A DNA stretch of 64,000 nucleotides from Candidatus Zixiibacteriota bacterium (GCA_030613505.1 JAUWLW010000009.1:1110-65109); one strand, 5' to 3'. Shown: positions 4,138 to 57,775, counted from the first letter of the stretch. The notes: generated by a model not told the origin, from the sequence alone. A program made the numbers and translations.

Positions 4138-4150
4138 CGTGGTAAACGAT

Positions 4151-7022: not shown

Positions 7023-8021
7023 TTGCTCGCGCGCGACGTACGCGTCGGCATCACGACTACCCTTCCTATAGAGGTCCTCTGGGCGGCGGGCTATAGGCCG
7101 GTGGACCTCAATAATTTATTCATAGGCCGCGGCGACGCCGAACGCGCGGTGCAAGAGGCCGAAAGCGTAGGTTTCCCGCGTAGCACCTGCGCTTGGATAA
7201 AGGGGATCTACGCCACCGTTAAGGAGGAGGGTTTCGGCCGCGTCGTTGTCGTGACCGGGGGCGACTGTTCCAACGCCGCCGCGCTGGGCGAGGTCTTGGC
7301 GGACGAGGGCGTCGACGTCGTCGCGTTCGCGTTTCCTTCACGGCCGGACCGGGCCGCGACAACCCTCGCCGTAGAGGCGCTCGCCGGCCGATTCGAAACG
7401 ACCGTAAGCGCCGCTGAAGGAGTTTTCGCGCGCCTCTCGCGAAGCCGGGCGCTCCTGGCGGAGGTGGACGAGCTGACGTGGCGCGAGGGCATCGTGTCCG
7501 GCCGCGAGAACTTCGATTGGCTGCTGAAGGCTTGCGATTTCGGCGTCGGGGTCGAAGAATTTGAAGAAGAAGCGACGCGGTTCTTGGCGGAAGTGCGCGG
7601 CCGGCGCGGGCAAACGAAGCGCGTCCGCCTGGGCGTAGCCGGCGTTCCCCCCATCAACGACGACCTCTTTGAGTTTCTGGAGAGTTTGGGGGCCGCGGTC
7701 GTATTCAACGAGCTGCCGCGGCAATTCGCGCTCTTGGCCGGCGGCGACGACCTGGCCGACGCGTACACTCGTTATACCTACCCTTACGGCGCCGGGACCC
7801 GCATAGCCGATATATTGGAAGAGGTAGAACGCCGCGGCGTGCAGGGCTTGGTGCATTACGTCCAATCCTTCTGTTACCGCGGGATCCAGGATATTCTCGT
7901 ACGCCGCGCCGTGCCGGTCCCGGTCTTGACGCTGGAGGGCGAGCGGCCCGGGCCGCTGTCGGCGCAGCAGCGTCTGCGGCTCGAAACGTTCGTCGAGATG
8001 TTGGCCGGGGGTACTCGTTAG
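7023..8021 (+). CDS. 2-hydroxyacyl-CoA dehydratase / benzoyl-CoA reductase subunit family protein (HgdB/BcrC-like).
   Basis: Pattern 'CAWIKGIY...VVVTGGDCSN' and overall alpha/beta layout resemble HGD-D family subunits. It is shorter (332 aa) than typical subunits and no activase gene is nearby. Assignment by recall only. Confidence 0.4.
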   Translation: MLARDVRVGITTTLPIEVLWAAGYRPVDLNNLFIGRGDAERAVQEAESVGFPRSTCAWIKGIYATVKEEGFGRVVVVTGGDCSNAAALGEVLADEGVDVVAFAFPSRPDRAATTLAVEALAGRFETTVSAAEGVFARLSRSRALLAEVDELTWREGIVSGRENFDWLLKACDFGVGVEEFEEEATRFLAEVRGRRGQTKRVRLGVAGVPPINDDLFEFLESLGAAVVFNELPRQFALLAGGDDLADAYTRYTYPYGAGTRIADILEEVERRGVQGLVHYVQSFCYRGIQDILVRRAVPVPVLTLEGERPGPLSAQQRLRLETFVEMLAGGTR

Positions 8022-14543: not shown

Positions 14544-14629
<86 letters not shown>

Positions 14630-14649
14630 AATTTTTCGCGGGATTCCCG

Positions 14650-14913
14650 ATGGCGTCTCGAGCCGATAAAATACGGTTGTTGGTCGCCGGCCTGGTGGCC
14701 AGGCCTCGTCTCGAGGGTTACCTCTCGAGCCGGCGCGTGCGCCTCGAGCCCCGCCAGGAGCGCTTCTTCGACCGGCCCTTCATGTGCCTGCTCGAGGAAC
14801 GCGGCGCGCTGGTGCCGGTTACGGTGGCGTTCGGCGAGGAGGAATGGGACGCGGCGGCGGCCGCCGCCGAGAGGGCCGGCGTCGAGGCCGACGCCCTCGG
14901 GATAAAAAACTGA
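14650..14913 (+). CDS. Hypothetical small protein between the two tRNA-Ser genes.
   Basis: ORF with ATG at 14650 ('MASRADKIRLLVAGLV...'). The longer version in the track would start inside the tRNA. No recognised domain. It may not be a real gene. Confidence 0.25.
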   Translation: MASRADKIRLLVAGLVARPRLEGYLSSRRVRLEPRQERFFDRPFMCLLEERGALVPVTVAFGEEEWDAAAAAAERAGVEADALGIKN

Positions 14914-14931
14914 ATACGACGCAGGTTCCGC

Positions 14932-15020
14932 GGAGAGGTGTCCGAGCGGCTTAAGGAGCACGCCTGGAGAGCGTGTGGGCCCGTTGGGCCTCGTGGGTTC
15001 GAATCCCACCCTCTCCGCCA
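14932..15020 (+). tRNA. tRNA-Ser (anticodon GGA), with encoded CCA.
   Basis: Acceptor stem GGAGAGG/CCTCTCC, identical to the first tRNA. Anticodon stem-loop 'cacgc CTGGAGA gcgtg'. Long variable arm. T-arm 'gtggg ttcgaat cccac'. 3'-GCCA. Confidence 0.8.
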
Positions 15021-25050: not shown

Positions 25051-25617
25051 ATGAAGATACTCGTACATGCCTGCTGCGGGCCTTGTTTAGTGGCGCCGGC
25101 ACGCGCGTTAGCGGCGGAAGGGCACGAAATACTGGCATATTGGTACAACCCGAACGTCCAGCCGTACCGCGAGAACCGCAAAAGGCTCGCCGCCTTCAGG
25201 GAAGCCGCTAACCGCGACGGTTGGCCCGCCGACGTCGACGACCGCTACGACGTGGATTTTTTCCTGAAGGAGGTTGCCGTTCGCCGGGAAGGCCGTTGCC
25301 CGCGTTGCTACTACGAGCGGCTCTCGCGGGCCGCGGCGCGGGCGGCGGCGAACGGCTGCGACGCCTTCACGACGACGTTACTGATATCACGTCACCAAGA
25401 CCGTGAGGCCCTGCTGGAGGCGGGAGCGCGGGCGGGCGCAGCAGCCGGCGTCGCGTTTATGGGGAGCGACTTCAGGCCTTTGGACGGCGAGAGCCACCGC
25501 CTCGCCCGCGAGATGGGCCTTTACATCCAGGGTTACTGCGGCTGCATATATAGCGAGGAGGAACGTTACCGAAAGCGGGAGGACGTTGACTCGAGCGAAG
25601 TTCGATCTGGCGGTTAA
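25051..25617 (+). CDS. queH: Epoxyqueuosine reductase QueH (DUF208).
   Basis: 'MKILVHACCGPC', 'YWYNPNVQPYRE' and C-terminal 'CPRCYYERL' match the QueH pattern. ATG at 25051. The track ORF starts at 25027. Confidence 0.7.
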   Translation: MKILVHACCGPCLVAPARALAAEGHEILAYWYNPNVQPYRENRKRLAAFREAANRDGWPADVDDRYDVDFFLKEVAVRREGRCPRCYYERLSRAAARAAANGCDAFTTTLLISRHQDREALLEAGARAGAAAGVAFMGSDFRPLDGESHRLAREMGLYIQGYCGCIYSEEERYRKREDVDSSEVRSGG

Positions 25618-25645
25618 TGTCCCGCTGGTGTGGAAGCATCTGAGG

Positions 25646-26185
25646 ATGCCGGCGCAGGAGGCGGCGGGCGAACTCCGCCGCGAATTTGACGACGTTTACC
25701 GGCGAGCCCGGGCCGTGCTCGAGCCGAGGTATTCGTACGCTCGCGCGGCCGTCGTCGCGGCCCGCGGCCGGACGTTGGAATTGGAGGGCGTCGTCTTCGA
25801 AAGCGCGGACCTCGTAGAGATGGCGGCCGGCGCTTCCGCCGTCGTGGCCATGGCGGCGACGGTGGGCGACGGCATCGACGGGTTGGCGCGCGAGTACGAC
25901 GGCCGGGGCGAAACGTTCGCGATGACGGTGGCCGACGCCGTCGGCTCAGTGGCGGCGGAGGAGCTTATGTCGCGGCTGCACGCCTTCGTCGGCGCCGAAG
26001 CCGAGCGCGCGGGCGAGCTGGTAACGCGGCGCGTTAGTCCCGGCTACGGCGACTTTGAGCTCGCGGCCCAGGAGCGCCTGCTCCGGCTGGCCGGCGGCTT
26101 CGAGTTGGGAATCAGCTTGACCGAGAATTATATGATGGTTCCGCGCAAGAGCGTGACCGCGGTCGCGGCGGTTAAGGCGAGATGA
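25646..26185 (+). CDS. Stand-alone methionine synthase activation (AdoMet-binding, Met_synt_B12-like) domain protein.
   Basis: 'RRVSPGYGDFELAAQERLLRLAG...LTENYMMVPRKSVTAV' resembles the MetH C-terminal reactivation domain. Its stop overlaps the metH start (ATGA, 26182-26185). The start is uncertain: an ATG lies at 25646, but the ORF is open from 25403. Confidence 0.55.
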   Translation: MPAQEAAGELRREFDDVYRRARAVLEPRYSYARAAVVAARGRTLELEGVVFESADLVEMAAGASAVVAMAATVGDGIDGLAREYDGRGETFAMTVADAVGSVAAEELMSRLHAFVGAEAERAGELVTRRVSPGYGDFELAAQERLLRLAGGFELGISLTENYMMVPRKSVTAVAAVKAR

Positions 26186-28575
26186 AACTTAGGCGCGAAC
26201 AATTCAAGACTTTGGCCCGGAAGCGCGTTTTACTTCTAGACGGCGCGATGGGCACGCTGCTTCAGCGCGAAGGGTTGCCGGCCGGCGAGCCGCCGGACGG
26301 GTTCAATATACACCGCCCGGACGCGGTGCGCGCGTCGTACGCGGCCTACGTCGCGGCCGGCGCCGATATAATTTTAACCAATACCTTCGGCGCGACGAGG
26401 CGACGGCTCGCGCTCTATCGCCTCGCCTCCCGCGCCGACGAGATAAACCGCGCCGGGGTCGTGCTGGCGCGGGAGGCCGCGGCCGATAAAACCTGGGTGG
26501 CCGGCGACGTGGGCCCGTTGGGCGAGTATCCCGAGCCGTTGGGCGCGCTATCTTTCGACGAGGCGTACCGCGAATTCTACCGCCAGGCGCGGGTGCTGGC
26601 CGACGCCGGCGTGGACCTCGTCGTCGTCGAAACGATGTCGGACCTGCGCGAGGCCAAGGCCGCGGTGGTAGCGGCGCGCGCGGCTTTCGACGGCCCCGTC
26701 GTCGCCTTTATGACGTTCGACGACGGCGGCCGCGCCGTTACCGGGACGCCGCCCGAGGTGGCCGCCGTAACGCTCGTCGCCGCGGGCGCGGATGCGGTAG
26801 GGGCCAACTGTTCGGTGGGGGCGCGGGAGCTCGTGCCGGTTATTCGGGCGATGGCGGCCGCGGTGGACGTTCCGGTGTGTGCCAAGCCGAACGCCGGCCT
26901 GCCCAGACTCGTGGCGGGCAAGACGGTGTTCCGGCAGACGCCGGCCCAATTCGCGTCGTGGGTGCCGAAGCTCGTGGCTGCCGGCGCCGCGGTGGTGGGC
27001 GGTTGCTGCGGCACGACCCCCGAACACGTGCGCTTGGCGGCGAAAGCGGCCAGGGGTTTGAAGCCGCCGAGACGACGCCGGGGAGAGCGTAGGTCCACGC
27101 TTGCCAGCCGCACGCGGTTGGTTGTCGCGGGCGCGGGCGCGCCCGTCGTCGTGGGCGAACGTATTAACCCGACGGGCCGGCGCGAGCTTACGCGGGAGCT
27201 TGCGAAAGGCTCTTTCGATTTGGTAGCGAGCGAGGCCGAGGCGCAGGTGGCCGCGGGCGCGGCCGTCGTCGACGTAAACGTGGGCGACGGGGACGGCGCC
27301 GCGGGCACGATGGCGGCCGCGGTACGCGCGATTCAGGACGCCGTGGACGTGCCGGTTTCGGTAGACTCCGCCAGGCCGGAGGTGCTGGAGGCGGGCTTGA
27401 AGGCGGCGGTGGGGAAGCCGTTGTTGAACTCCTGCCCGGCGTCGGGGCGGGCGATGGCTAAGCTTCTGCCGTTGGCGCGCCGCTGGGGGGCGGCGGTCGT
27501 GGGTTTGGCGATGGACGCCCGCGGCATCCCGGCGACCTCGGCCGAACGGTTCAAATTGGCCGAAAAGTTTGTAGGCCGGGCGCTGGACGAGGGTATCGCG
27601 CTCGACGACATATACGTCGACCCGTTGATGTTGACCGCGGCGCAGGGCCGTGCGGCCCAAGCCTTCGAGACCCTGCGTGAGATAAAGAAGACCCTCGGCG
27701 TGCGGACGATTATGGGTGTGAGCAACGTGTCCCACGGCCTTCCGAGGCGAGACTTGTTGAACGCCGCGGCGTTTCTGTACGCCGCGGGCGCGGGCCTCGA
27801 CCTCGCCATCGTCGATCCCCTCGACGAGCGGATACGGGAAGCGATGGGTACGGCGTCGGCTTTGGCGGGCGGCGAGCGCGAAGTGGCTGCGTACGTCGAA
27901 GCGTTTTTGGAAAAACCTTCACGGAAAAAGGTAAGGAAGAGGAAGGTTCCGACGCCGGGCAACGAGCTGTACGAGGCGGTCGTCGACGGCCGGCGCGAGC
28001 GGGCGGCGGCCGCGGCCGCTCGAGCCGTTAAAAATTCCCCCAAGCCGTTTGCCATAAATAATAAATTTATCGTGCCGGCGCTGGAGGAAGTGGGTCGCCT
28101 TTTCGAGAGGAAAGAGTATTATCTTCCGCAGGTAATAAGGGCGGCTGAAGCGGGGCAAGCGGCGTTTAGCGTTATTGAGAAAGCAACCGATAAAGAGTCG
28201 CGCCGTCCGGCGGGCCGCGTCGTCTTCGCGACCGTGGCGGGCGACGTCCACGACATCGGAAAGAACGTCGTCGCCGCGGTGCTGCGCAGTCACGGCTTCG
28301 ACGTTTACGATTTGGGGAAGAACGTTTCCACGCCGCGCGTGGTCGAGAGCGCCAAGGCGCGGCGGGCGGACGTCGTGGCGTTGTCGGCGCTGATGACGAC
28401 GACGATGCCCGAGATGGGCAAAGTCGCGGAGGCGCTGCGGGAGCGCGGCGTCAAGGCGCGCTTGCTGGTTGGTGGCGCCGTCGTTACGGAAAAGTACGCC
28501 AAGGAGATAGGTGCCGCGTACGCGCGCGACGCCGTCGCGGCGGCGCGCGTCGCCAAACGTCTGGTTCGACGATAA
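26182..28575 (+). CDS. metH: Cobalamin-dependent methionine synthase MetH lacking the activation domain. It carries the Hcy-binding, pterin-binding, B12 cap and B12-binding modules.
   Basis: N-terminal 'LLLDGAMGTLLQ' Hcy S-methyltransferase domain. Pterin-binding barrel. 'VVFATVAGDVHDIGKNVV' DxHxxG cobalamin-binding motif. It ends after the B12 domain at 797 aa. Confidence 0.8.
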   Translation: MKLRREQFKTLARKRVLLLDGAMGTLLQREGLPAGEPPDGFNIHRPDAVRASYAAYVAAGADIILTNTFGATRRRLALYRLASRADEINRAGVVLAREAAADKTWVAGDVGPLGEYPEPLGALSFDEAYREFYRQARVLADAGVDLVVVETMSDLREAKAAVVAARAAFDGPVVAFMTFDDGGRAVTGTPPEVAAVTLVAAGADAVGANCSVGARELVPVIRAMAAAVDVPVCAKPNAGLPRLVAGKTVFRQTPAQFASWVPKLVAAGAAVVGGCCGTTPEHVRLAAKAARGLKPPRRRRGERRSTLASRTRLVVAGAGAPVVVGERINPTGRRELTRELAKGSFDLVASEAEAQVAAGAAVVDVNVGDGDGAAGTMAAAVRAIQDAVDVPVSVDSARPEVLEAGLKAAVGKPLLNSCPASGRAMAKLLPLARRWGAAVVGLAMDARGIPATSAERFKLAEKFVGRALDEGIALDDIYVDPLMLTAAQGRAAQAFETLREIKKTLGVRTIMGVSNVSHGLPRRDLLNAAAFLYAAGAGLDLAIVDPLDERIREAMGTASALAGGEREVAAYVEAFLEKPSRKKVRKRKVPTPGNELYEAVVDGRRERAAAAAARAVKNSPKPFAINNKFIVPALEEVGRLFERKEYYLPQVIRAAEAGQAAFSVIEKATDKESRRPAGRVVFATVAGDVHDIGKNVVAAVLRSHGFDVYDLGKNVSTPRVVESAKARRADVVALSALMTTTMPEMGKVAEALRERGVKARLLVGGAVVTEKYAKEIGAAYARDAVAAARVAKRLVRR

Positions 28576-41360: not shown

Positions 41361-41404
41361 AAAAACGCCGCCCGCCCGGGCGGCTTTATTCTTCTCTTGG
41401 CGGT
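41361..41404. terminator. Bidirectional hairpin terminator between the convergent genes.
   Basis: AAAAAC-GCCGCCCG-cc-CGGGCGGC-TTTATTCTTCTCTT. Confidence 0.55.
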
Positions 41405-41424: not shown

Positions 41425-42762
41425 TTAGGTTCGTCCGAGTATGTTAGCGACTACCGCGGCCAGGTCCGCGCGCGGTACCTCCACTTGTTCCCGTTTCGCC
41501 AGGTCCTTCAATTGAACGACGCCCTTTGCGACCTCGTCAGGGCCGACGACGACGACGAAAGGGATCCCTTTGGCATCCGCGTAGCCGAACTGCTTGGCGA
41601 GTTTGGCGGAGGGCTCGAGGTAAACCTCGCAAGTCGCGCCGGCCGCTCTTATCTCCGCGGCGACTTCCAATGCGTCTTGCAGGACGCTCTTGTCATATAC
41701 CGCGACGAGTACGTTCGCGGCGTCGCCGCCGGCGGTTTCGCGGTCCGCGAGGAGCGTTATGATGCGCTCCAGACCGAACGACGTTCCGGTCGCGGGGAGG
41801 TCCGGTCCTCCCAGCTGCGCGATTAGCTGGTCGTAGCGGCCTCCCCCCGCCACCGAGCCTACGCCCCCCTCGACGACGAACGCCTCGTAGATGGGGCCGG
41901 TGTAGTAGTCCAGGCCGCGGGCCATATGGAGGTCGAAGCTCACGACGTCGTCGGGGACGCCGAAGTGATGGACGTATTCGGCCAAATTATGCATATCGGC
42001 GACGCCCTCGCGGCCTTCGTCGTAGTCGCCGGCGAACGCCTGAGCCGCAGTTAGATAATAATTGAAGCGGCCGCTGTTCTTCGGGTCGAATAACACATTC
42101 ATAATTTCGTCGGCTGCGGGTTCCGGTACGTCGCTCGCCGCAAGCTCGGCCTCGACGCCGTCGCGGCCTACTTTGTCGAGTTTGTCCATAGCTCGGATAG
42201 CCGCGAATTTAAGCTCGGCCGGGACGCCGGCATAATCCATGAAGGCCGACAGTATTTTGCGGTGATTTACGCTTATGCGATAATTTTTAAAACCCAAAGC
42301 CGCGAGCGTTTCGTGCATGACGGCGACCATCTCGGCGTCGGCGAGTACGGACGCCGTCCCGACGCAGTCGACGTCGCATTGGACGAACTCGCGGAAGCGG
42401 CCTTTTTGCGGCCTCTCGGCGCGCCACACGGGCTGGATCTGGTAACGCTTGAACGGTTTGGGAAGGTCTTGGTTCGCGGCCATAACGCGCGCCAGCGGGA
42501 CGGTGAGGTCGTAGCGCAGGCCCAGGTCGGCCTCGCCGCGCTCGCCGGCGGCGCCGCGCTTCAGGATGCGGAAGATGAGTTGGTCCGCCTCGTCGCCGTA
42601 CTTGCCGGTCAGGACGTCGAGGCGCTCGAGCGCCGGCGTCTCCAGCGGCGCGTAGCCGAAGCTCTCGAAGACGCGCTTGACGGTCTCGATCACGCCGGCG
42701 CGGGTGCGGATCTGCGCCGGCAGGTAGTCGCGCGTTCCTTTGGGCGGTAGGGGTTTCATCAC
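41425..42762 (-). CDS. hisS: Histidine--tRNA ligase.
   Basis: 'KPLPPKGTRDYLPAQIRTRAGVIETVKRVFESFGYAPLETPALE' class II aaRS motif 1. HisRS-specific motifs. 445 aa. Confidence 0.9.
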   Translation of the reverse strand: MMKPLPPKGTRDYLPAQIRTRAGVIETVKRVFESFGYAPLETPALERLDVLTGKYGDEADQLIFRILKRGAAGERGEADLGLRYDLTVPLARVMAANQDLPKPFKRYQIQPVWRAERPQKGRFREFVQCDVDCVGTASVLADAEMVAVMHETLAALGFKNYRISVNHRKILSAFMDYAGVPAELKFAAIRAMDKLDKVGRDGVEAELAASDVPEPAADEIMNVLFDPKNSGRFNYYLTAAQAFAGDYDEGREGVADMHNLAEYVHHFGVPDDVVSFDLHMARGLDYYTGPIYEAFVVEGGVGSVAGGGRYDQLIAQLGGPDLPATGTSFGLERIITLLADRETAGGDAANVLVAVYDKSVLQDALEVAAEIRAAGATCEVYLEPSAKLAKQFGYADAKGIPFVVVVGPDEVAKGVVQLKDLAKREQVEVPRADLAAVVANILGRT

Positions 42763-42797
42763 CTGTAGTTGTGCGCGGTCCCGTGGAGCGGTCGGCG

Positions 42798-44330
42798 TTA
42801 TTCCAACTCCCCCGCGACCTTCTCGGCCGCGGCCAGGACCTCACCCGACTTCACGAGCTCGGCCACGCGGTTGATGTCGTATTGCGTCGGCCGGTCCTTC
42901 TCCATAAAGTCGACGTGCTGGCGGACCAGCTTGTGCACCGCCCCCGCGGCGGCGCCGCCCTTGAGCGGCCGCCGGTGGTCCATCGCCTGGCACGCCGCTA
43001 TAAGCTCAATCGCTATGATGTACCAGGCGTTGCGCAATATCTGCTTCGTCTTGATAGCGGTGTTCATCCCCATGGAGACGAAGTCCTCCTGGTCCGCGGC
43101 GGCGGGTATGGAGCCGGTGGCCGCGGGGTGGCATAGGACGCGGTTCTCGTTGACCAGCATGCCGGCGGTGTACTGCGTGAGCATCAGGCCGCTGAACATG
43201 CCGGCGCCGTGTATCAGGAACGCCGGGAGCCCCTCGCTCAGGTTGGGGTTCATCAGGCGGTTGAGGCGCCGCTCCGAGAGGACGCATACCGTAGTCGCCG
43301 CGGTGCCGACCAGCTCGAGGGCGAAGGCCAGCGGCGTCCCCTGGAAGTTGGCCCCGGTGACCACTTCGTCGTCGTCGGGGAAGAAGAGCGGGTTGTCGCC
43401 GGCGCCGTTGAATTCGATCTCGAACATTTGCCGCGCCCAGTCGAAGGCGTCCTTGGCCGAGCCGACTACCTGGGGCGTGGAGCGGAGGCTATACGCGTTC
43501 TGGACTTTCTTCTTGCCCATCTTGCCGGGGATGAGCATCTCGGAGCCGTCGACCAGGCGGCGGATGTTGCTCGCGCATTTGACGGCGCCCGGGTAGCCGC
43601 GGGCTTTGTGAAGGCGTTCGTCCAGGCAAAGCGTATTGAGGTTCAGGACCTCGAACGTCATGGCGGCGATGACTTCCTGCGTCTTGGCCCAACGGTAGGC
43701 GTCGTGGACCTCGAGGGCGCCCATGCCGGCGATGACGTTGGAGCCGTTGATGGTGGCGAGGCCGTCGCGGGCCTCGAAGACGATGGTGGGTACGCCGGCG
43801 GCATCCATGGCCTTTTTACCTTCCATTCGCTTGCCGCCGAAGAAAGCCTCGCCCTCGCCTATGAGCACGAGCGCCACCTGGCTCATGGGCGAGAGGTCGC
43901 CGGAGGCGCCCACCGAGCCGTACCGGAATACGACCGGCGTAACGCCCTTATTGAGCATGTCGACGAGGGTCTCTACCACTACCGGCCTGAGCCCCGAAAA
44001 GCCGACGCAGTGACAGTTGACGCGGGTGGCCATCGCGGCGCGGATGTCGTCGACGTCGCAGGGCTCACCGCAGCCCGCGGAGTGGGAGTACACGAGGTAG
44101 CGTTGGAATTCCTGCGTTTGCTCGGGCGTGAGGACTACTTCCGAAAACTCGCCGATGCCGGTCGTCACGCCGTACATGACCTCGCGCTTCTCCAATTTGT
44201 CGTCCAGCATCGCGCGGCATTTACGAATCCGTTCCCACGCGTCCTCGGTCACCTCGACCGGCTCGCCGCCGCGCGCGATTTTAACTAGACTCTCGATCGT
44301 AAGCGATTTACCGTCGAGTTTAGCCGTCAT
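42798..44330 (-). CDS. hutH: Histidine ammonia-lyase family (MIO-dependent ammonia-lyase/aminomutase).
   Basis: MIO-forming 'GSVGASGDLSPMSQVAL' (Ala-Ser-Gly). Overall HAL/PAL architecture. 510 aa. Substrate assignment tentative. No hutU/hutI in the window. Confidence 0.75.
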   Translation of the reverse strand: MTAKLDGKSLTIESLVKIARGGEPVEVTEDAWERIRKCRAMLDDKLEKREVMYGVTTGIGEFSEVVLTPEQTQEFQRYLVYSHSAGCGEPCDVDDIRAAMATRVNCHCVGFSGLRPVVVETLVDMLNKGVTPVVFRYGSVGASGDLSPMSQVALVLIGEGEAFFGGKRMEGKKAMDAAGVPTIVFEARDGLATINGSNVIAGMGALEVHDAYRWAKTQEVIAAMTFEVLNLNTLCLDERLHKARGYPGAVKCASNIRRLVDGSEMLIPGKMGKKKVQNAYSLRSTPQVVGSAKDAFDWARQMFEIEFNGAGDNPLFFPDDDEVVTGANFQGTPLAFALELVGTAATTVCVLSERRLNRLMNPNLSEGLPAFLIHGAGMFSGLMLTQYTAGMLVNENRVLCHPAATGSIPAAADQEDFVSMGMNTAIKTKQILRNAWYIIAIELIAACQAMDHRRPLKGGAAAGAVHKLVRQHVDFMEKDRPTQYDINRVAELVKSGEVLAAAEKVAGELE

Positions 44331-44726
44331 CTAAGGGCCTCCTGTAAAGCAGCCGTCGAGCCGGGCCGCCGGGGCCCGACGTAAAGGGCTCTCGGCGATT
44401 TTTCGTGGTAGATGCTACGGCTTCCGCCGCGGGGTTTATCGATATTTAACTTAAACGGCCAACATTGTGGCTTGGCGGTAAACTAATCGGCGGTGATTCT
44501 ATCACTTACGAGCCGGAGTCGCAATATATTATTAAATATCCGGGCGACTTTTTTACGCGTTTTAGAGCTCATAGTTAACCTTTTCAACATTATCGTATTT
44601 ATGTTAATATAAAGGGTGGTAACAGGGCGTCGGCGGCGAGGCCGGGAGGGCTTCGCGTAACTTGTCGTGTAGTAGTAATAGTAAGGAGATACCGTACCGG
44701 TTTTTAGCAAGCGGTTCGAGCGGCGG

Positions 44727-46493
44727 ATGTGGGCCGCGGCTCCCGAAATAAAGGCGCTTTTGAAGGCGGCGCCGACGTTTGAGGAAGCCCGGCTGGCCGT
44801 TTTCGATTACCTCGAGGCGCGGAAGCGCGAAGTCCGGGCCGAGGAAGTCGACCTTCCCAGCTGGGAGTGGGAAGTCGTCGACGATTGTATCGACGTACTG
44901 AAAAACATTTTTTCGGCTTATTACGAAAAGTCGGCGAAATTCAGCGGCCTGCGGACCCTTTGGCAGCTGGCGCGGGGCAAGTATTCGGGGAGGCGCAAGG
45001 AGCTGTCGCCCGGGTTATTTGAGGAATTCCGACACCTTTTCCTGGGGATAGCGGGTAGGTCGCCGATCTACGAAGGCAAGGAGCTGCCGACGTATGCCGG
45101 ACTGCACGGCCGCAAGGCCGCGCTCGCGCGTTCACGGGACCTCGACCTCCTCGCGGGCGAATTGGAGGAGGGCCTGGCGCGGTATCCGTCGGGCCTCGAT
45201 GAAGATTTAATTGCAGAACGACGACGCAACGCAACGCGCGTAAGGAAACTCTTCGGCGCCACGGACGACGAGTGGGACGATTGGCATTGGCAGTTCGGTA
45301 ACGTCATTCGCGACCGCAAGACGCTACAGAAAATAATTACGCTCTCGCGCGAGGAGGCGAAGGCCGTCGACCTCGCCGCCGAGAAGGGCGTACCGTTCGG
45401 CATCACGCCGTACTACGCGTCGCTGATGCGGCGCCGTGTATCGCGGTCCCGCGTCCACGCCACCCGGGCGCAGGTGATCCCGCCGCTGGCGTACGTCCAA
45501 AGTATGGTTAAGTTCCGCGGCCGGCTCGAGTTCGAATGCGACTTCATGCTCGAGCGCGATACGTCGCCCGTGGACCTCGTGACGAGGCGTTATCCCACCA
45601 TCGCGATCTTAAAGCCCTACAGCGGTTGCTTTCAAATCTGCGTTTATTGCCAGCGCAACTGGGAGGTCACCGGGACCGACCGCGTCGGGGCCGCGGCGCC
45701 CAAGAGGAAGCTCGACGCCGCCCTCGATTGGCTCGAGGCCACGCCTGCGGTCAACGAGGTCCTGGTTACCGGCGGCGACCCGCTCGCGCTGAGTGACGAC
45801 CGCCTGGAGTACATTATGGACCGGCTGGCGGCTATGTCCTCCATAGCAAGGGTGCGCCTCGGGACGCGGGCGCTGGTCGTCGCGCCCATGCGCGTTACGC
45901 AGGACCTGGCCGACCTCATAGCCCGTTATAACGAGCCCGGGCGGCGCGAGGTCGTCGTCGTGACCCATTTCGAACATTCCGCGGAGGTCACGCCGGAGGC
46001 GATGCGCGCGGTGCGGCGGTTCGGCCGGCGGGGCATCGCGGTTTACAATCAGGCGGTATTCACTTTCGCCAACTGCCGCCGCTTCGAGATGTGTAAGTTG
46101 AGATTCGACCTAAGGCGCATCGGCATCGACCCGTACTACCTCTTCAACGCCAAGGCCAAGGAGGAGCTCGACGTCTACCGCGTGCCGCTAGCGCGCCTGG
46201 AGCAGGAGCGCAAGGAGGAGGCGCGGCTGCAGTCGGGCGTCGTGCGGACCGACGCGCCGGTGTACAACATCCCGCGCCTCGGCAAGCACAACGTCATCGC
46301 CTGGCAGCATCACCGCGTCATCGCCGTCCTTCCGGACGGTCGCCGCGTGTACGAGTTCCAGCCATGGGAGAAGAATATCTCGCCGGAGGAGGTTTTCGTC
46401 GAGGCCGACGTCTCGATTTACGACTTTTTAGAATACCTCAAAGGCCGTGGCGAAAACGTAGACGAGTACAAGACGATTTGGTATTATTTCTAG
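44727..46493 (+). CDS. KamA-family radical-SAM aminomutase (lysine 2,3-aminomutase-like) with a ~170-aa N-terminal extension.
   Basis: 'WDDWHWQFGNVIRDRKTLQKII...GVPFGITPYYASLM' parallels the KamA N-terminus ('WNDWLWQL...ITPYYASLM'). Radical-SAM 'CFQICVYCQRNW' (Cx3Cx2C). 'VTGGDPLALSDDRLEYIM'. The first ~170 aa have no KamA counterpart. Confidence 0.7.
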   Translation: MWAAAPEIKALLKAAPTFEEARLAVFDYLEARKREVRAEEVDLPSWEWEVVDDCIDVLKNIFSAYYEKSAKFSGLRTLWQLARGKYSGRRKELSPGLFEEFRHLFLGIAGRSPIYEGKELPTYAGLHGRKAALARSRDLDLLAGELEEGLARYPSGLDEDLIAERRRNATRVRKLFGATDDEWDDWHWQFGNVIRDRKTLQKIITLSREEAKAVDLAAEKGVPFGITPYYASLMRRRVSRSRVHATRAQVIPPLAYVQSMVKFRGRLEFECDFMLERDTSPVDLVTRRYPTIAILKPYSGCFQICVYCQRNWEVTGTDRVGAAAPKRKLDAALDWLEATPAVNEVLVTGGDPLALSDDRLEYIMDRLAAMSSIARVRLGTRALVVAPMRVTQDLADLIARYNEPGRREVVVVTHFEHSAEVTPEAMRAVRRFGRRGIAVYNQAVFTFANCRRFEMCKLRFDLRRIGIDPYYLFNAKAKEELDVYRVPLARLEQERKEEARLQSGVVRTDAPVYNIPRLGKHNVIAWQHHRVIAVLPDGRRVYEFQPWEKNISPEEVFVEADVSIYDFLEYLKGRGENVDEYKTIWYYF

Positions 46494-46553: not shown

Positions 46554-46589
46554 ATAAAAAAGCCGCCCCGCCGGGCGGCCGTTTGCTTT
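46554..46589. terminator. Bidirectional rho-independent terminator.
   Basis: AAAAAAA-GCCGCCC-cgcc-GGGCGGC-CGTTTGCTTT, between the convergent KamA-like and porin genes. Confidence 0.65.
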
Positions 46590-50502: not shown

Positions 50503-52254
50503 TTAACGAGTGATTACCAATCGCCGGTTTAGCGTTCCGTTGGCCGTTCGGAGGCGGTAGACGTAAACGCCGGGCGCCAGCGGCCGGCCCGCCTCGTCGG
50601 CTACGTTCCAGGCGATCTCTTTGGCGCCGGCGGCGGCGTGGCCTTCGTAGAGGGTCCGTATTTTGCGGCCGGCGTAGTCGTAGACCTCGAGCGCGACGGC
50701 CCCGGGTTGGGCCAGCTCGAACTTGATGGTCGTGGCGTCTCGGGCCGGGTTAGGCCGGTTCTGATAAAGGGCCGCGCCTTTCGGCAGCGCCTTGCCCGAC
50801 GCCCGCCCCTTGACCGGGCCGAAGGTCGACGTTTCCCCCTTCAAGTCCACGCCCTCGAGCAGGTACTCGTAATCGCGGCCCGCTTCGACGCCCCGGTCGA
50901 CGTAGTTATATGGCGAGCGGCCGGCGACGAGGTTCTCGTTGAGCTTCGCGTAATCGACCGTCGCCGGTCCTTCCGCGGTCGGCCGGCGGTAGAGGTTGAA
51001 GCCCGCCACGTCGCGTTCGTTCGCGACTTCCCAATGAAGCGTTACGCCGCCGGCGGCGGCCTCGGCCCGGAACGACGTTACGTTTACGGGTAACTCCGAA
51101 AAGCCGAGCTTAAGGAGTTTGAGAAGCACCGGATATTGTTCGGCGCAGGTGATGGGGATTTGGTAGGCCGGCGGTTGTTGGGAGGTATCGATCTCGAACG
51201 TGAAGCCCCAGCACTTGTCGTGGCCTTTACCGTCGTATTCCCAATCGCACGCCGTCCCGCTCCCCAGGTAGCGCAACGTTTCCCAGAAATTGCCGTGCCG
51301 CCACCCCGATAAAGTTTCTATGAGATATAACGAGACGTTTTTGAAGTACGTATAATCGGGCTCGGGGGGATGGCCGTAATCGTGGTTCCAGGGATACATG
51401 CAATATCGGCCGGACGAGTGATAATTTAGGGCGTAATTAAACTGGTGTTCGTTGCTATTGACGAGGTCGCGGATAGCTTGGGTTTCCGGTTCCGAAAAGG
51501 CGTAGGGGCCGCAATAGGTAGAGGCGTTCGGGTTGTGACTGCACCCCGGTACTTTACCCCACTCGTAGTCGTAATTACGGTTGAGGTCGACGCCGTAGCT
51601 CCCGCCGCCGTTGTCTCGGCGGTTTTTTCGCCACCTGTTGTAAACCTTGAAGACGTGGTTGTGGCCGTCAGGGTTAAGCATGGGGATTATCCAGGTCTCG
51701 ACGTTATCGACTATCAGCTTGACGTCGGGATCGGTCGGGTATTTCTCGCATAATTTCTTGGCGAGGTAAAGCGGCACCTCGACCGTCATGATCTCGTTGG
51801 CGTGGTGGTTGCCGTCTATGAGGATATCCTTTTCGGCTGCCTCGTGCGTCGCGACGTTGTCTGATATCTTCAGCGCCCAGATTTCGCGTTTCTCCCACGT
51901 ATCGCCGACGTCGTAGAGCCTGCAGATATTCGGGTAGGTGCTGGCGAGCCCTTGTAATATGGAAACCATCTCGTCGTACTCGGTATACTCGGAGGGCGGC
52001 GCGTCGGCGGTATCGATTTCGTCCAGAACGTCGTAGGAGATACTTTTAAGGCCAAGGACGGCGAGGTCGTCGGCCGACGCGTATAGGTCAAAGTGACCGG
52101 CGGCGTCCGCCCCGGCGACGTCGAAATCGTAGCGTCGCAGGTCGGCCATAAGGCGAGCCGGGTCGGCGTACGCGCGCGTTAAGTAAACGGTATCCGCGGC
52201 GGCTCCCGCGGCCAACGCAGCGACCACGGTTACAAATAATACTACGCTTTTCAC
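50503..52254 (-). CDS. Secreted M14 zinc carboxypeptidase with a C-terminal FlgD-Ig/T9SS-CTD-like domain (paralog 1).
   Basis: Signal peptide. 'GNHHANEIMT' HxxE zinc site. 'MLNPDGHNHV'. The C-terminal '...YQNRPNPARDATTIKFELAQPGAVALEVYDYAGRKIRTLY...GVYVYRLRTANG' domain is present. Confidence 0.8.
   Translation of the reverse strand: MKSVVLFVTVVAALAAGAAADTVYLTRAYADPARLMADLRRYDFDVAGADAAGHFDLYASADDLAVLGLKSISYDVLDEIDTADAPPSEYTEYDEMVSILQGLASTYPNICRLYDVGDTWEKREIWALKISDNVATHEAAEKDILIDGNHHANEIMTVEVPLYLAKKLCEKYPTDPDVKLIVDNVETWIIPMLNPDGHNHVFKVYNRWRKNRRDNGGGSYGVDLNRNYDYEWGKVPGCSHNPNASTYCGPYAFSEPETQAIRDLVNSNEHQFNYALNYHSSGRYCMYPWNHDYGHPPEPDYTYFKNVSLYLIETLSGWRHGNFWETLRYLGSGTACDWEYDGKGHDKCWGFTFEIDTSQQPPAYQIPITCAEQYPVLLKLLKLGFSELPVNVTSFRAEAAAGGVTLHWEVANERDVAGFNLYRRPTAEGPATVDYAKLNENLVAGRSPYNYVDRGVEAGRDYEYLLEGVDLKGETSTFGPVKGRASGKALPKGAALYQNRPNPARDATTIKFELAQPGAVALEVYDYAGRKIRTLYEGHAAAGAKEIAWNVADEAGRPLAPGVYVYRLRTANGTLNRRLVITR
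50556..51204. repeat. ~650-bp segment ~97% identical to 52401..53049 (3' third of the tandem M14 genes).
   Basis: Direct comparison of the two stretches shows only scattered single-nucleotide differences at a constant offset of 1845 nt. Additional short identical blocks occur near 51780-51900 and 53620-53740. Confidence 0.8.
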
Positions 52255-52280
52255 GCCGTCACCTCCTCGGGGTAACCGTT

Positions 52281-52317
52281 AAAAAAGCCCGGTTCGGCGC
52301 GAGCGCCGCCGGGCTTT
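52281..52317 (-). terminator. Rho-independent terminator of M14 paralog 2.
   Basis: On the minus strand: GCCCGGCGGCGCTCGCGCCGAACCGGGC followed by TTTTTT. Confidence 0.65.
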
Positions 52318-52347
52318 CGTCATTATTATCTGTTAGGTCGTCTCAAG

Positions 52348-54096
52348 TTAACGGGTTACGACCAAGCGCCGACTGAGCGTTTCGGCGCTCGTCCGCAGCC
52401 GGTAGACGTAAACGCCGGGCGCCAGCGGCCGGCCCGCCTCGTCGGCTACGTTCCAGGCGACCTCTGTGGCGCCGGCGTCGGCGTGGCCTTCAAAAAGCGG
52501 CCGTATTTTGCGGCCGGCGTAGTCGTAGACCTCGAGCGCGACGGCCCCGGGTTGGGCCAGCTCGAACTTGATGGTCGTGGCGTCTCGAGCCGGGTTAGGC
52601 CGGTTCTGATAAAGGGCCGCGCCTTTCGGCAGCGCCTTGCCCGACGCCCGTCCCTTGACCGGGCCGAAGGTCGACGTGCCCCCCTTCAAGTCCACGCCCT
52701 CGAGCAGGTATTCGTAGTCGCGGCCCGCCTCGGCGCCGCGGTCGACGTAGTTATACGGCGAGCGGCCGGCGATGAGGTTTTTGTTGAGCTTCGCGTAATC
52801 GACCGGCGCCGGCCCTTCCGCGGTCGGCCGGCGGTAGAGGTTGAAGCCCGCCACGTCGCGTTCGTTGGCGACTTCCCAGTGAAGCGCTACGCCGCCGGCG
52901 GCGGCCTCGGCCCGGAACGACGTTACGTTTACGGGTAACTCCGAAAAGCCGAGCTTAAGGAGTTTGAGGAGCACCGGATATTGTTCGGCGCAGGTGATGG
53001 GGATTTGGTAGGCCGGCGGTTGTTGGGAGGTATCGATCTCGAACGTGAAACCCCAATCTTTGGGGTGGCCTTTACCGTCGTATTCCCAGTCTACGGCGTT
53101 GCCGGAGGCCAAGTAGCGAAGGATTTCCCAGTCGTTGCCGTGCCGCCAGCCTGGCAAGGTCTCGAGCAGGTACGTCGCGACGTTCTTGTAATACGTGTAA
53201 TGGGGCTCCGGCGGGTGGCCGTAGGTATAAGCCCACGGGTAGAGCATGGCCCGGCCGGAGGAGTGGTAGTTTAACGTATACGCGAATTGGTGGTTAACGT
53301 CGTTGATGAGGTCCCGGATCGCCTGGTTCTCCGGTTCGGAAAAAGGGGAGGGGCCGCAGTAAGTCCTATCATTGGGGTTATGGCTCGCGCCGGATTCGCC
53401 CCAGTGATAGTCGTAGTTGCGGTTGAGGTCGACGCCGTAGATGCCGCCGCCGTTGTCGCGGCGGTTCTTACGCCACCTGTTATCCTCCGTGAAAACCCAG
53501 TTGTGGCCGTCCGGGTTGAGCATGGGGATTATCCATGTCTCGACGTTATCGACTATCAGCTTCACGCCGGGGTCGGTCGCGTATTTCTCGCACAAGTTCT
53601 TGGCGAGGTAAAGCGGCACCTCGACCGTCATGATCTCGTTGGCGTGGTGGCAACCGTTTATAAGGATGTCTTTCTCCGCCGTCTCGTGCGTCGCGACGTT
53701 GTCTGATATCTTCAGCGCCCAGATTTCACGCTTCTCCCAGGTGTCGCCGACGTCGTAAAGTTTACAAATATTGGGGTAGGTATTCGCGAACCCTTGCAAT
53801 ATCGGTACCATCTCATGGTACTCAGTGTACTCCGGAGGAGGTGCGTCGGAGGTATCGATTTCGTCCAGAACGTCGTAGGAGATACCTTTAAGGCCAAGGA
53901 CGGCGAGGTCGTCGGCCGACGCGTATAGGTCGAAGTGGTCGCCGGGTACGGCGCCGTCTACGTCGAAGTCGTACTCCGCCAGATCGGTCATAAGGCGGGA
54001 CGGGTCCGCGTAGGCGCGCGTCCAATAAAGCGTGTCCGCGGACGCGCCGGCGGCCAGGGCGGTTCCTAAGATTGTGACAACTACTATAGCTCTCAT
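52348..54096 (-). CDS. Secreted M14 zinc carboxypeptidase with a C-terminal FlgD-Ig/T9SS-CTD-like domain (paralog 2).
   Basis: Same motifs as paralog 1 ('NGCHHANEIMT', 'MLNPDGHNWV'). ~75% aa identity over the catalytic domain. Near-identical C-terminal third. Confidence 0.8.
   Translation of the reverse strand: MRAIVVVTILGTALAAGASADTLYWTRAYADPSRLMTDLAEYDFDVDGAVPGDHFDLYASADDLAVLGLKGISYDVLDEIDTSDAPPPEYTEYHEMVPILQGFANTYPNICKLYDVGDTWEKREIWALKISDNVATHETAEKDILINGCHHANEIMTVEVPLYLAKNLCEKYATDPGVKLIVDNVETWIIPMLNPDGHNWVFTEDNRWRKNRRDNGGGIYGVDLNRNYDYHWGESGASHNPNDRTYCGPSPFSEPENQAIRDLINDVNHQFAYTLNYHSSGRAMLYPWAYTYGHPPEPHYTYYKNVATYLLETLPGWRHGNDWEILRYLASGNAVDWEYDGKGHPKDWGFTFEIDTSQQPPAYQIPITCAEQYPVLLKLLKLGFSELPVNVTSFRAEAAAGGVALHWEVANERDVAGFNLYRRPTAEGPAPVDYAKLNKNLIAGRSPYNYVDRGAEAGRDYEYLLEGVDLKGGTSTFGPVKGRASGKALPKGAALYQNRPNPARDATTIKFELAQPGAVALEVYDYAGRKIRPLFEGHADAGATEVAWNVADEAGRPLAPGVYVYRLRTSAETLSRRLVVTR
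52401..53049. repeat. Second copy of the ~650-bp near-identical segment (see 50556..51204).
   Basis: As above. Confidence 0.8.
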
Positions 54097-56066: not shown

Positions 56067-56867
56067 CTACAACGTAATACGTATGCCGCCTTCGAAGACA
56101 AACGCGGTTCTAATTTCCTGATCTTCCTCGATTCCCCGGTACTCCCCGCCGCCGAAGAAGATTAAAGTGGTCCAATCGAAATACGGTACGAAGCGGCTCT
56201 CGGCGATCCTTACGTCGAGACCGCCCCCGGGCCGGACGTACCACCGTTCGATTGTTTCCGAATACCAACGGGTGAGTTCGTAGTCTTCGTACGCGTAGCC
56301 AAACCCAACGGTAGCGTGCGGTTTTAAGAAATACGACCGCGAGTAGGGTATTATATAAGGCCTTAATTCCAAGCCGACCAAGAAACCCAAACCATCCCCG
56401 TGGAAAAAACCTGATAGTTCCGGCCCGAATGCGAAATAGTCGCTGACGTTAAAGACAAGGTCCGCGGTTGGGGCCACGCAGGTTCTACTACCGAACCAAC
56501 CGCCTACCCCCAACGATAGCGTAAGTAGGCTGCGTTCCCAACGACTTTCCGCGGGTCGCGTTTCTGCTATTTCGGTTAACCTAAACCGGCAATACGCGCA
56601 ATAGACGTCGCCCTGCTCGGTTTTTTCGCCGCATTTAGGACAGTAGTTATAATCCGTCCTTAACTCCGGTAGTTTTTTACCGCAATTCGCGCAATAAATC
56701 GCGCCCGTCGCGTTTTTCGCGCCGCACGCGGGGCACGTTTGGGTTTCGTCTGCGGCGGCCGTTAATGTAAGCGCTTTGGCTTCAGTACTGGCGGATCCCG
56801 GCGCGAAAGCCCCGAAGCAGGTTAAACAAACTGTTGTTACGAATAGTAATAGCGTCTTCGTATTCAC
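56067..56867 (-). CDS. Exported double-zinc-ribbon protein with a C-terminal beta-rich domain. Hypothetical.
   Basis: GTG start at 56867 after GGAGGG. Signal peptide 'VNTKTLLLFVTTVCLTCFGAFA'. Two CxxC-N10-CxxC ribbons: 'CPACGAKNATGAIYCANCG' and 'CPKCGEKTEQGDVYCAYC'. Confidence 0.5.
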   Translation of the reverse strand: MNTKTLLLFVTTVCLTCFGAFAPGSASTEAKALTLTAAADETQTCPACGAKNATGAIYCANCGKKLPELRTDYNYCPKCGEKTEQGDVYCAYCRFRLTEIAETRPAESRWERSLLTLSLGVGGWFGSRTCVAPTADLVFNVSDYFAFGPELSGFFHGDGLGFLVGLELRPYIIPYSRSYFLKPHATVGFGYAYEDYELTRWYSETIERWYVRPGGGLDVRIAESRFVPYFDWTTLIFFGGGEYRGIEEDQEIRTAFVFEGGIRITL

Positions 56868-57142
56868 GTACACCCTCCGTATCTTTTTGTATTGAAGTAC
56901 CTTGGAGGAGTTACACAACCTCCGACGTTATACGCCGCAGTCCCGGTTGTGGAACCCTTATCCTATCGCCCGCATAAAACCCCTTTAGAAGCTAAATAGC
57001 GGGACCTCTATTTTAACGGCGAATCTTTCCCGTTCCAAGGATCTCCGGGCGCATGGCAAACGTATTTGAGTATCGTCGTCATGGCCCGGACGCGACGCGT
57101 AGACCGGCTCGGTTTTGACCGCGAGGCCGACGATAAACACAA

Positions 57143-57775
57143 CTAAACCCCCAGGCACATAACGCCGCCCGCGATATAAATCGCCTTCGAATCTTCGCCG
57201 ATACCCAAGGCCGTGATGCCGGGGCCGATTACGAGCCACATCACGAGGCCGGCAACCCACAATCCCGTCCTCGCGTGGCCCGGCTCGATCATCGTCCCCT
57301 TGGGGATATAACCTCTCCCCGGTACGTAAACCAATTCCAGTTCGGCGGTTCGGGCCCCGGCGGCGGAGAAGCCGTACCCGCAATCGCCGCAGAACCTCGC
57401 CCCCTTCTCGTTGACGAAACCGCACGTAGGGCACACCCTTGCGTACGTTAAGCCTGCGTCGGACGCACCCGTTCCTTTATTCGTTCCGCATTGCGAACAG
57501 TATTTCGCGTCGGCCGGGTTTACGTAGCGGCAGTTAACGCACGTCCAAGTCTCTCCGGCCGCGGCGACGTCGGATATCCCCGCCAATATCTCGTCGTACG
57601 TAATTTGCGCGTACGTCAGCGGATCGTATTCGATTATGGGGAGTTCTTCGGTGACTGTCGCCCCGCGCTCTTCGCTGAGACGGTTCCACGGTACGGCCCA
57701 CGCGATATTAGCCCACAAAAGCGCTGACGCAAGGATAAGAACGAACGCGCCGTTAACCTTTAAAATGCGACCCAT
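57143..57775 (-). CDS. Exported/membrane-anchored double-zinc-ribbon protein, paralogous in architecture to 56067..56867.
   Basis: Hydrophobic N-terminus 'VNGAFVLILASALLWANIAWA'. 'CVNCRYVNPADAKYCSQCG' and 'CPTCGFVNEKGARFCGDCG'. C-terminal TM 'GLWVAGLVMWLVIGPGITALGIG'. Confidence 0.5.
   Translation of the reverse strand: MGRILKVNGAFVLILASALLWANIAWAVPWNRLSEERGATVTEELPIIEYDPLTYAQITYDEILAGISDVAAAGETWTCVNCRYVNPADAKYCSQCGTNKGTGASDAGLTYARVCPTCGFVNEKGARFCGDCGYGFSAAGARTAELELVYVPGRGYIPKGTMIEPGHARTGLWVAGLVMWLVIGPGITALGIGEDSKAIYIAGGVMCLGV

Follow-up and report, generated by a model that had tools for sequence, protein, structure and literature searches.

The KamA family of radical S-adenosylmethionine (SAM) enzymes, which also employ pyridoxal 5'-phosphate (PLP), includes two characterized relatives of the protein that is the main subject of this work: lysine 2,3-aminomutase (LAM) of Clostridium subterminale, with the solved structure 2A5H, and the glutamate 2,3-aminomutase Eam of Clostridioides difficile, represented by the model TIGR04368. 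A second family, whose members carry the 4-methylideneimidazole-5-one (MIO) group, comprises the histidine ammonia-lyases (HAL or HutH) of Pseudomonas putida (1B8F), Trypanosoma cruzi (6V6H) and Thermoplasma acidophilum (7TQR), along with the aminomutases SgTAM (2OHY), PaPAM/AdmH (3UNV) and Taxus PAM, which share the same fold and MIO motif. Both families include known members that form beta-amino acids. We analyzed a locus, at positions 41425–46493 of a 64,000-nucleotide stretch of DNA from a Candidatus Zixiibacteriota bacterium (JAUWLW010000009.1, positions 1110–65109; hereafter the window), in which a MIO enzyme gene is followed on the same strand by the histidyl-tRNA synthetase gene hisS and is divergent from a KamA homologue with an extended N-terminus. 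An earlier note on this sequence had taken the shared intergenic region as a hint of a single beta-amino acid pathway.

The comparisons described below favor a different interpretation. We consider it rather probable that hisS, the HAL gene and the long KamA gene of this Coatesbacteria-type genome function independently of one another, that their adjacency reflects lineage-specific synteny and not a pathway, and that the KamA protein is an aminomutase, for which an acidic substrate is tentatively proposed.

A long form of the KamA family

The KamA gene (44727–46493, plus strand) encodes a protein of 588 amino acids that scores 308.8 bits against the family model TIGR00238, well above the cut-off of 199.2, and passes none of the equivalog models of KamA-type enzymes. 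The N-terminal extension pointed out in the earlier note is real and conserved, and is not an artefact of start codon choice. No start codon lies between the preceding in-frame stop and position 44727. Among the 120 best homologues, with 48–91% identity, nearly all are 588–600 amino acids long, and most of them cover 100% of the query, the lowest coverage (92%) being that of partial sequences; homologues of about 597 amino acids number in the thousands and can be aligned over their entire length. Conserved columns are present from the N-terminus on, ahead of W183 and W188, both in an alignment of 25 members and in one of 66; Y115, R135 and L139, for instance, are invariant, and R129 and S136 are almost invariant. 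The part of the extension that is unique to this family is, however, smaller than the 170 residues previously assigned to it and includes only residues 1 to about 128, because residues 129–171 align to the N-terminal part of TIGR04368.

The beginning of the gene differs from that of its close relatives. Relatives of 599 amino acids start 11 codons upstream, with VPVFSKRFERRMW, and positions 44694–44726 of the window encode the same N-terminal peptide in frame ('VPVFSKRFERR'), with GTA at the place of the start codon. Here, then, no start ahead of ATG 44727 is usable, and translation of KamA appears to have shifted to an internal methionine in this genome.

Four segments can be recognized in the protein. 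The family-specific N-terminal domain (residues 1–128; 44727–45110) is followed by two helices with the motif 'RYPSGLD' (residues 129–171; 45111–45239), which align to positions 3–45 of TIGR04368, by the radical-SAM/PLP core (residues 172–520; 45240–46286), and by a C-terminal beta/alpha domain with the motifs 'EFxPWEK ... WYYF' (46287–46493, stop codon included). The match to TIGR00238 spans residues 172–519 and the match to the LAM structure 2A5H residues 177–490. AlphaFold2, supplied with the 66-sequence alignment, modeled the single chain with a predicted local distance difference test score (pLDDT) of 89 and a predicted template modeling score of 0.90; the N-terminal domain is all-helical in the model, with pLDDT values of 84–97, and has neither a fold match nor a Pfam match. 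A profile of this domain found only 279 matches among 1.84 billion cluster representatives, those matching over its full length being proteins of about 600 amino acids, and many of the short ones resembling fragments from contig ends. Four longer candidate fusions offered no hint of a function, two of them resembling run-on gene calls (with TetR, and with DnaJ and M54) and two having no Pfam match. The domain does not appear as an independent unit, a point that the earlier note had singled out for a search; it packs on the core and may serve in oligomerization or regulation.

The C-terminal domain contains no conserved cysteines and has no Pfam match. It recurs in a 704-amino-acid Bacteroidales 'KamA family protein', of which the uncharacterized WP_009275016.1 of Parabacteroides distasonis is an example. 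That protein has the same architecture as the long form, with an 'RxPxGLD' N-terminal extension, a KamA core with the same Lys/Asn pair that is discussed below and a C-terminal 'EYxTIWxY' domain; it differs in that the two are only 27% identical, several large insertions are present, and the score against TIGR00238 is 140, below the cut-off of 199.

With each species represented by one genome, a scan detected the long form in at least 590 species, distributed among KSB1, Calditrichota, Bacteroidales, Ignavibacteria, Zixibacteria, Marinimicrobia, Desulfobacterota, Aminicenantes, Spirochaetota, Myxococcota, Coatesbacteria and others.

Cofactor binding and substrate of the long form

The only strong match that Foldseek returned for the structural model was LAM (2A5H, E-value 5e-23, TMt 0.75), which is 28% identical over residues 177–490. 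Like LAM, the long form possesses the CxxxCxxC motif, the carboxylate-binding arginine, a GGD motif (within 'TGGDP', residues 348–352) and the PLP lysine. In the alignment with 2A5H, C301, C305 and C308 (45627–45650) fall on the LAM cluster ligands C125, C129 and C132, R310 is the equivalent of Arg134, which binds the carboxylate, and K476 (46152–46154) occupies the place of Asp293. When a LAM-like protein of Deinococcus, a BlsG and further KamA proteins are aligned with the long form, N514 (46266–46268) falls on the aspartate of 'VVDAPGGGGK', that is, LAM Asp330, and K520 (46284–46286) on the invariant PLP lysine in the G-K column, Lys337 in LAM numbering. Among 198 long-form sequences, C301, C305, C308, R310, N514 and K520 are each present in all, and K476 in 197; the three cluster ligands are the only invariant cysteines. 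A second invariant lysine, K478, stands beside K476. The conservation of the cysteines, R310 and K520 thus indicates that the cofactor apparatus of a PLP-dependent radical-SAM aminomutase is intact, whereas the two aspartates that bind the epsilon-ammonium group of lysine in LAM have been replaced. The long form also differs from LAM in its added N-terminal domain and its new C-terminal domain, and the C-terminal Zn-Cys site of LAM is apparently absent from it.

On the basis of these residues, the most probable function of the long form is that of an amino acid 2,3-aminomutase that relies on radical-SAM chemistry and PLP. In such an enzyme, SAM bound to the [4Fe-4S] cluster on C301, C305 and C308 would give rise to the 5'-deoxyadenosyl radical, to which the substrate, bound to PLP as an aldimine, would lose its beta-hydrogen; the PLP itself would rest on K520, and the amino group would move from C2 of the substrate to C3.

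The substrate is suggested by two features. First, the pair of residues, Lys and Asn, at the positions of LAM Asp293 and Asp330 reportedly sets glutamate 2,3-aminomutase apart from LAM. Second, although the best equivalog match of the long form, to the Eam model TIGR04368, is under the cut-off, it spans residues 129–477 and begins at profile position 3; other long-form members (P0031, P0068 and P0115) begin at positions 1–4, whereas the LAM-like protein, BlsG and two other KamA proteins begin only at positions 45–52. Of the KamA types tested, then, no other than the long form matches the first 45 or so positions of the Eam profile, and because its matches begin at positions 1–4, the segment of residues 129–171 with 'RYPSGLD' is shared with the Eam type. 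The replacement of the lysine-binding aspartates by Lys476 and Asn514, combined with this shared N-terminal segment, makes an acidic substrate the most likely one, and the residue identities and the behavior of the profile point, tentatively, to L-glutamate, which would be converted to beta-glutamate.

Several observations weigh against this assignment. The TIGR04368 score is 218.1 bits for the protein from the window and 233–249 for other members, compared to a cut-off of 650, and the long form is not an orthologue of the characterized Eam, so that its substrate could differ. Eam is a protein of about 420 amino acids and the long form one of about 597, with a separate helical domain of approximately 128 residues added at the N-terminus and a different C-terminal domain, the match to TIGR04368 ending at position 331–342 of 404. 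Moreover, a search for a reference glutamate 2,3-aminomutase with which to compare the Lys/Asn pair, by tblastn of plasmids and NCBIfam typing of four candidates, recovered only the LAM-like protein, BlsG and untyped KamA proteins.

Two other assignments have to be weighed against these data. The long form could be an aminomutase, or some other radical-SAM/PLP enzyme, for a substrate different from glutamate, such as aspartate, 2-aminoadipate, glutamine, a gamma-glutamyl compound or a peptide- or protein-bound residue, in which case the N-terminal domain might recognize a larger substrate. A TIGR04368 score of only one third of the cut-off, the extra 128-residue domain along with the distinct C-terminal domain, the invariant K478 next to K476, and the lack of a conserved neighbor that would hint at a free amino acid pathway all speak for this possibility; nevertheless, we regard it as somewhat doubtful, given that the arginine for the alpha-carboxylate (R310) and the PLP lysine (K520) are kept as in the aminomutases of free amino acids and that the closest characterized profile, its specific N-terminal segment included, is still that of glutamate 2,3-aminomutase. 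Far less credible is an ordinary LAM that makes beta-lysine. The name is given to many members in the JGI annotation, and the fold and cofactor motifs do match those of LAM, but the score against the AblA equivalog TIGR03820 is 179.8 bits where 525.4 is the cut-off, Asp293 is replaced by Lys and Asp330 by Asn in essentially all of the 198 sequences, and neither ablB nor lysine fermentation genes are found nearby.

The MIO enzyme is of the histidine ammonia-lyase type

The MIO enzyme gene (42798–44330, minus strand) encodes 510 amino acids and matches PF00221 with 547 bits. Its score against NF006871, the model of the HAL subfamily, is 540.5 bits and exceeds the cut-off of 524, whereas those against the aminomutase models are far under the respective cut-offs: 398.4 versus 501 for tyrosine aminomutase (TIGR03832), and 350.7 versus 800 (TIGR04475) and 143.9 versus 1250 (TIGR04473) for phenylalanine aminomutases. 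The models of tyrosine and phenylalanine lyases are likewise missed by a wide margin. The best solved relatives of the protein are the HALs 6V6H and 7TQR; SgTAM ranks third, with 309 bits.

Like the HutH proteins, the MIO enzyme has the Ala-Ser-Gly triad (A142-S143-G144; 43899–43907), part of the 'GASGDL' motif at residues 141–146, and the Ser-His pair (S82-H83; 44082–44087). The identity of this pair is informative: Ser-His is characteristic of HAL, His-Leu of tyrosine ammonia-lyase and Phe-Leu of phenylalanine ammonia-lyase. In the alignment with 6V6H, Y53, S82-H83, N195, Q277, Y280, R283, F329 and E415 are all identical to the corresponding residues; these match the set of HAL catalytic and selectivity residues, which in P. 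putida HAL numbering consists of Tyr53, Asn195, Gln277, Tyr280, Arg283, Phe329, Glu414 and the Ser-His pair. The pair is retained in all 17 aligned HAL orthologues. Orthologues with 63–68% identity come from many phyla and bear the NCBI name histidine ammonia-lyase. By every available test, the MIO enzyme is thus predicted to be a histidine ammonia-lyase, which would yield urocanate and ammonia from L-histidine, and the alternative raised in the earlier note, that it might be a MIO aminomutase, finds no favor with the HAL-type selectivity pair, the full complement of HAL catalytic residues and the low scores against the aminomutase models.

On the other side of the balance, the score against the hutH equivalog TIGR01225 is 526.7 bits, about 12 bits short of the cut-off of 539.15, and the gene differs from hutH of the described systems in lying outside a hut operon and in having 'QEDF' for 'QEDH' and 'VQN' for 'VQD'. 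As the earlier note had observed, hutU, hutI and hutG do not accompany it: none was detected by Pfam and NCBIfam scans of approximately 48 large open reading frames (ORFs) in the window, and hutU and hutI are also missing from beside most HAL orthologues. In a survey of 80 metagenome loci with HAL orthologues, urocanase was encoded by none of 111 immediate neighbors, and HutI-like genes were within 6 kb of HAL in three loci. One orthologue (L086) has genes for an imidazolonepropionase-like (HutI-like) amidohydrolase and an FTCD_C protein immediately upstream. In this clade, HAL is usually a stand-alone gene.

A variation of the MIO-forming triad was noticed among the 120 closest HAL homologues (P0121–P0240). 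In 75 of them Ala-Cys-Gly ('GSVGACGDL') takes the place of Ala-Ser-Gly, which is found in the other 45, that of the window included. The switch from serine to cysteine occurs within Coatesbacteria, too, where a HAL with 81% identity (P0140) has the Ala-Cys-Gly form. The S143C mutant of P. putida HAL is said to be active, and the Ala-Cys-Gly homologues probably still form MIO. A natural clade of HAL with cysteine seems to be little described.

Genomic context of the three genes

The coordinates, strands and motifs recorded in the earlier note all proved correct, including the divergence of KamA from the co-oriented HAL and hisS genes and the motifs 'WDDWHWQF' and 'ITPYYASLM' (KamA residues 183–190 and 226–234). 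The gene downstream of HAL, hisS (41425–42762, minus strand, 445 amino acids), scores 384.5 bits against TIGR00442 (cut-off 286.75) and encodes both PF13393 and the anticodon domain PF03129 (HGTP_anticodon); all HisZ models remain far under their cut-offs, and the product is predicted to be an ordinary histidyl-tRNA synthetase. Terminator-like bidirectional hairpins are found downstream of hisS (41367–41384) and between the KamA gene and a convergent porin gene (46562–46579). Among the genomes compared, a Candidatus Coatesbacteria metagenome-assembled chromosome (CP070633.1) comes closest, with 77% identity in KamA, 83% in HAL and 69% in hisS.

To what extent is the adjacency of the three genes conserved? 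We surveyed 80 genomes that encode the long KamA, with neighbors recorded within 8 kb, and found HAL and hisS near KamA in a single one, the nearest Coatesbacteria genome (L001); the 80 HAL-orthologue loci include two with hisS nearby and one with a KamA relative. The arrangement of the window, KamA-HAL-hisS, is kept in L082 and L083. It is also kept in L091 (KamA 84% identical), where a restriction-modification cassette separates HAL from hisS. In L081 (CP070755.1), HAL is followed by a NADase_transloc gene and then hisS, with no KamA nearby; the long KamA of this organism (P0031) is apparently encoded elsewhere on the same chromosome. L084 and L097 have three unrelated genes, about 4.5 kb, between HAL and hisS, and in L084 no KamA was found near them. 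Conversely, L089 and L090, whose KamA proteins are 73% and 56% identical to that of the window, have neither HAL nor hisS in the vicinity of KamA.

No other gene takes the place of a conserved partner in the 80 loci, where only clade-level synteny was seen. The best of the ORF clusters delineated by BLAST around the long KamA recurs in 12 loci, and the most common Pfam family among 111 immediate neighbors of KamA in six; at the level of individual clades, a pair of genes resembling saccharopine dehydrogenase occurs in nine Bacteroidales loci and PorP/SprF in six. Since no gene consistently adjoins the long KamA, its function cannot be read from the context.

The Bacteroidales pair lies 0.1–3 kb downstream of the long KamA in L012, L014, L037, L045, L047, L049, L058 and L061. 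By eye, its members look like a lysine-ketoglutarate reductase and a saccharopine dehydrogenase; what Pfam confirmed is limited to AlaDh_PNT domains in three immediate neighbors. Both genes are present in eight loci, each gene cluster has nine members, and all of the loci are labeled Bacteroidales. The pathway of lysine-ketoglutarate reductase and saccharopine dehydrogenase links lysine to glutamate. The pairing may be plain synteny.

The intergenic region between HAL and KamA (44331–44726, 396 nucleotides, compared to about 395 in the earlier note) has an AT-rich center, and a promoter scan identified one sigma-70-like site in it for HAL (44524..44496, minus strand). The suggestion that it might harbor a riboswitch was not borne out. 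A scan of the whole window with Rfam at gathering thresholds assigned no family to the spacer, and at E ≤ 10 positions 44200–44850 yielded only one match, at chance level (E about 1). The folding z-scores relative to shuffled sequences are −0.09 and +0.02 for the two directions, and mean column identity is 56% among four close relatives (the window and three others), the HAL ribosome-binding site being the sole clear conserved block. A GC-rich hairpin (44340–44375, minus strand; CGTCGGGCCCCGGCGGCCCGGCTCGACG) is located directly upstream of this ribosome-binding site; at the same site, the relatives are GC-rich and possibly hairpin-forming, and the sequence is not conserved.

These data bear directly on the proposal that HAL, as an aminomutase or a lyase, and KamA belong to one beta-amino acid pathway of the beta-histidine or beta-lysine type, run from the shared 396-nucleotide region. 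Apart from the membership of both enzymes in families that can form beta-amino acids, the proposal draws on the divergent arrangement with a long spacer and on the recurrence of the layout in L001, L082/L083 and L091, which are the nearest relatives. The layout is, however, limited to one sub-clade and has been lost or rearranged in other Coatesbacteria. The HAL-type residues of one enzyme and the replaced lysine-binding aspartates of the other speak against it; none of the approximately 48 large ORFs scanned in the window encodes an ablB-like acetyltransferase, amino acid ligase or transporter partner, the first two of which the earlier note had proposed to look for; and the spacer is devoid of an Rfam family, excess folding and conserved blocks. 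Comparative genomics largely refutes such a pathway, which we consider very unlikely.

The relationship between HAL and hisS is a separate matter. The start of hisS is either GTG 42762 or ATG 42759, and the gap from the HAL stop codon is accordingly 35 nucleotides (42763–42797, minus strand), as the earlier note had it, or 38. Within 42763–42797, neither a terminator-like hairpin nor an obvious Shine-Dalgarno sequence could be identified; with no terminator between the two co-oriented genes, co-transcription is possible. In L001 and L082 the junction measures 23–74 nucleotides, and elsewhere it contains the cassette of L091, the single gene of L081 or the three genes of L084. An obligatory operon is unlikely because the junction tolerates such insertions. 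Even so, the window, L001, L082, L091, L081, L084 and L097 all have HAL upstream of a co-oriented hisS, and the two genes are a few kb apart at most in all six Coatesbacteria-type contexts seen. This persistent proximity could reflect weak functional coupling and not pure drift, which counts against complete independence of the genes. A stronger version of the same idea, a Coatesbacteria operon for histidine homeostasis in which free histidine is split between tRNA charging and catabolism, with KamA unrelated to it, would account for the short gap free of a terminator and for the constant order and orientation. We deem it unlikely, in view of the insertions tolerated in L091, L081, L084 and L097, the presence of hisS near HAL in only one further locus of the 80 outside the lineage, and the constitutive expression that the essential hisS would presumably need. 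The view that hisS, HAL and KamA are neighbors through lineage-specific synteny agrees better with these observations.

The cassette in L091 (HAL 90% and KamA 84% identical to those of the window) is a type II restriction-modification pair at positions 2055–3948, exactly between HAL and hisS, and consists of an N6_N4_Mtase and a NotI-like endonuclease. In L090, an unrelated locus, a similar methyltransferase and NotI pair adjoins the gene for the long KamA.

Other genes of the window

The neighborhood includes housekeeping genes (ddl, yajC, PCMT, pspA, mutL, metH and proline dehydrogenase) as well as peptidases with type IX secretion system (T9SS) tails. Several T9SS cargo proteins are encoded at 28–5128 and 50503–54096, among them a 1369-amino-acid gingipain-like C25 peptidase adjoining a PorV-like gene, two tandem M14 carboxypeptidases and an M10-like peptidase, with FlgD_ig or Por_Secre_tail at the C-termini of the cargo. 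Their presence suggests a T9SS in this Coatesbacteria-like genome.

Methionine synthase (25403–28575) is apparently both split and permuted: the MetH activation domain (Met_synt_B12) is on an upstream ORF of 260 amino acids that overlaps by 4 nucleotides a 797-amino-acid ORF with the homocysteine-binding, pterin-binding and B12-binding domains. An isolated gene similar to the D-component of 2-hydroxyglutaryl-CoA dehydratase (PF06050) is found at 7023–8021; no partner subunit or activator was seen among its immediate neighbors, two adjacent ORFs without a Pfam match, and the gene hints at amino acid fermentation chemistry. Two adjacent zinc-ribbon (DZR) proteins are encoded at 56067–57775, in the segment with the lowest GC content (0.54 versus about 0.62), and two tRNA-Ser genes with the anticodons CGA and GGA are situated on the same strand about 300 nucleotides apart (14544–15020).

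Implications

The gene cluster itself is ordinary: its divergent orientation and long spacer are suggestive of a pathway, but the comparison of genomes does not support one. What the locus brings to light is a large and phylogenetically broad family that is labeled 'lysine 2,3-aminomutase', lacks the lysine-binding residues and has a new N-terminal domain. It is quite possible that the proteins of about 597 amino acids, found in no fewer than 590 species from anaerobic phyla that are mostly uncultured, constitute a distinct, uncharacterized class of radical-SAM/PLP aminomutases, which would carry out the stand-alone synthesis of beta-glutamate or another acidic beta-isomer, as an osmolyte or as an entry to catabolism, with the helical N-terminal domain governing activity or assembly. 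To our knowledge, the organisms for which beta-glutamate metabolism has been described so far are methanogens, macrolactam producers and a few clostridia. If the long form is indeed an acidic-substrate aminomutase, beta-glutamate metabolism would extend to many uncultured bacterial phyla, and a widespread mis-annotation would be corrected.

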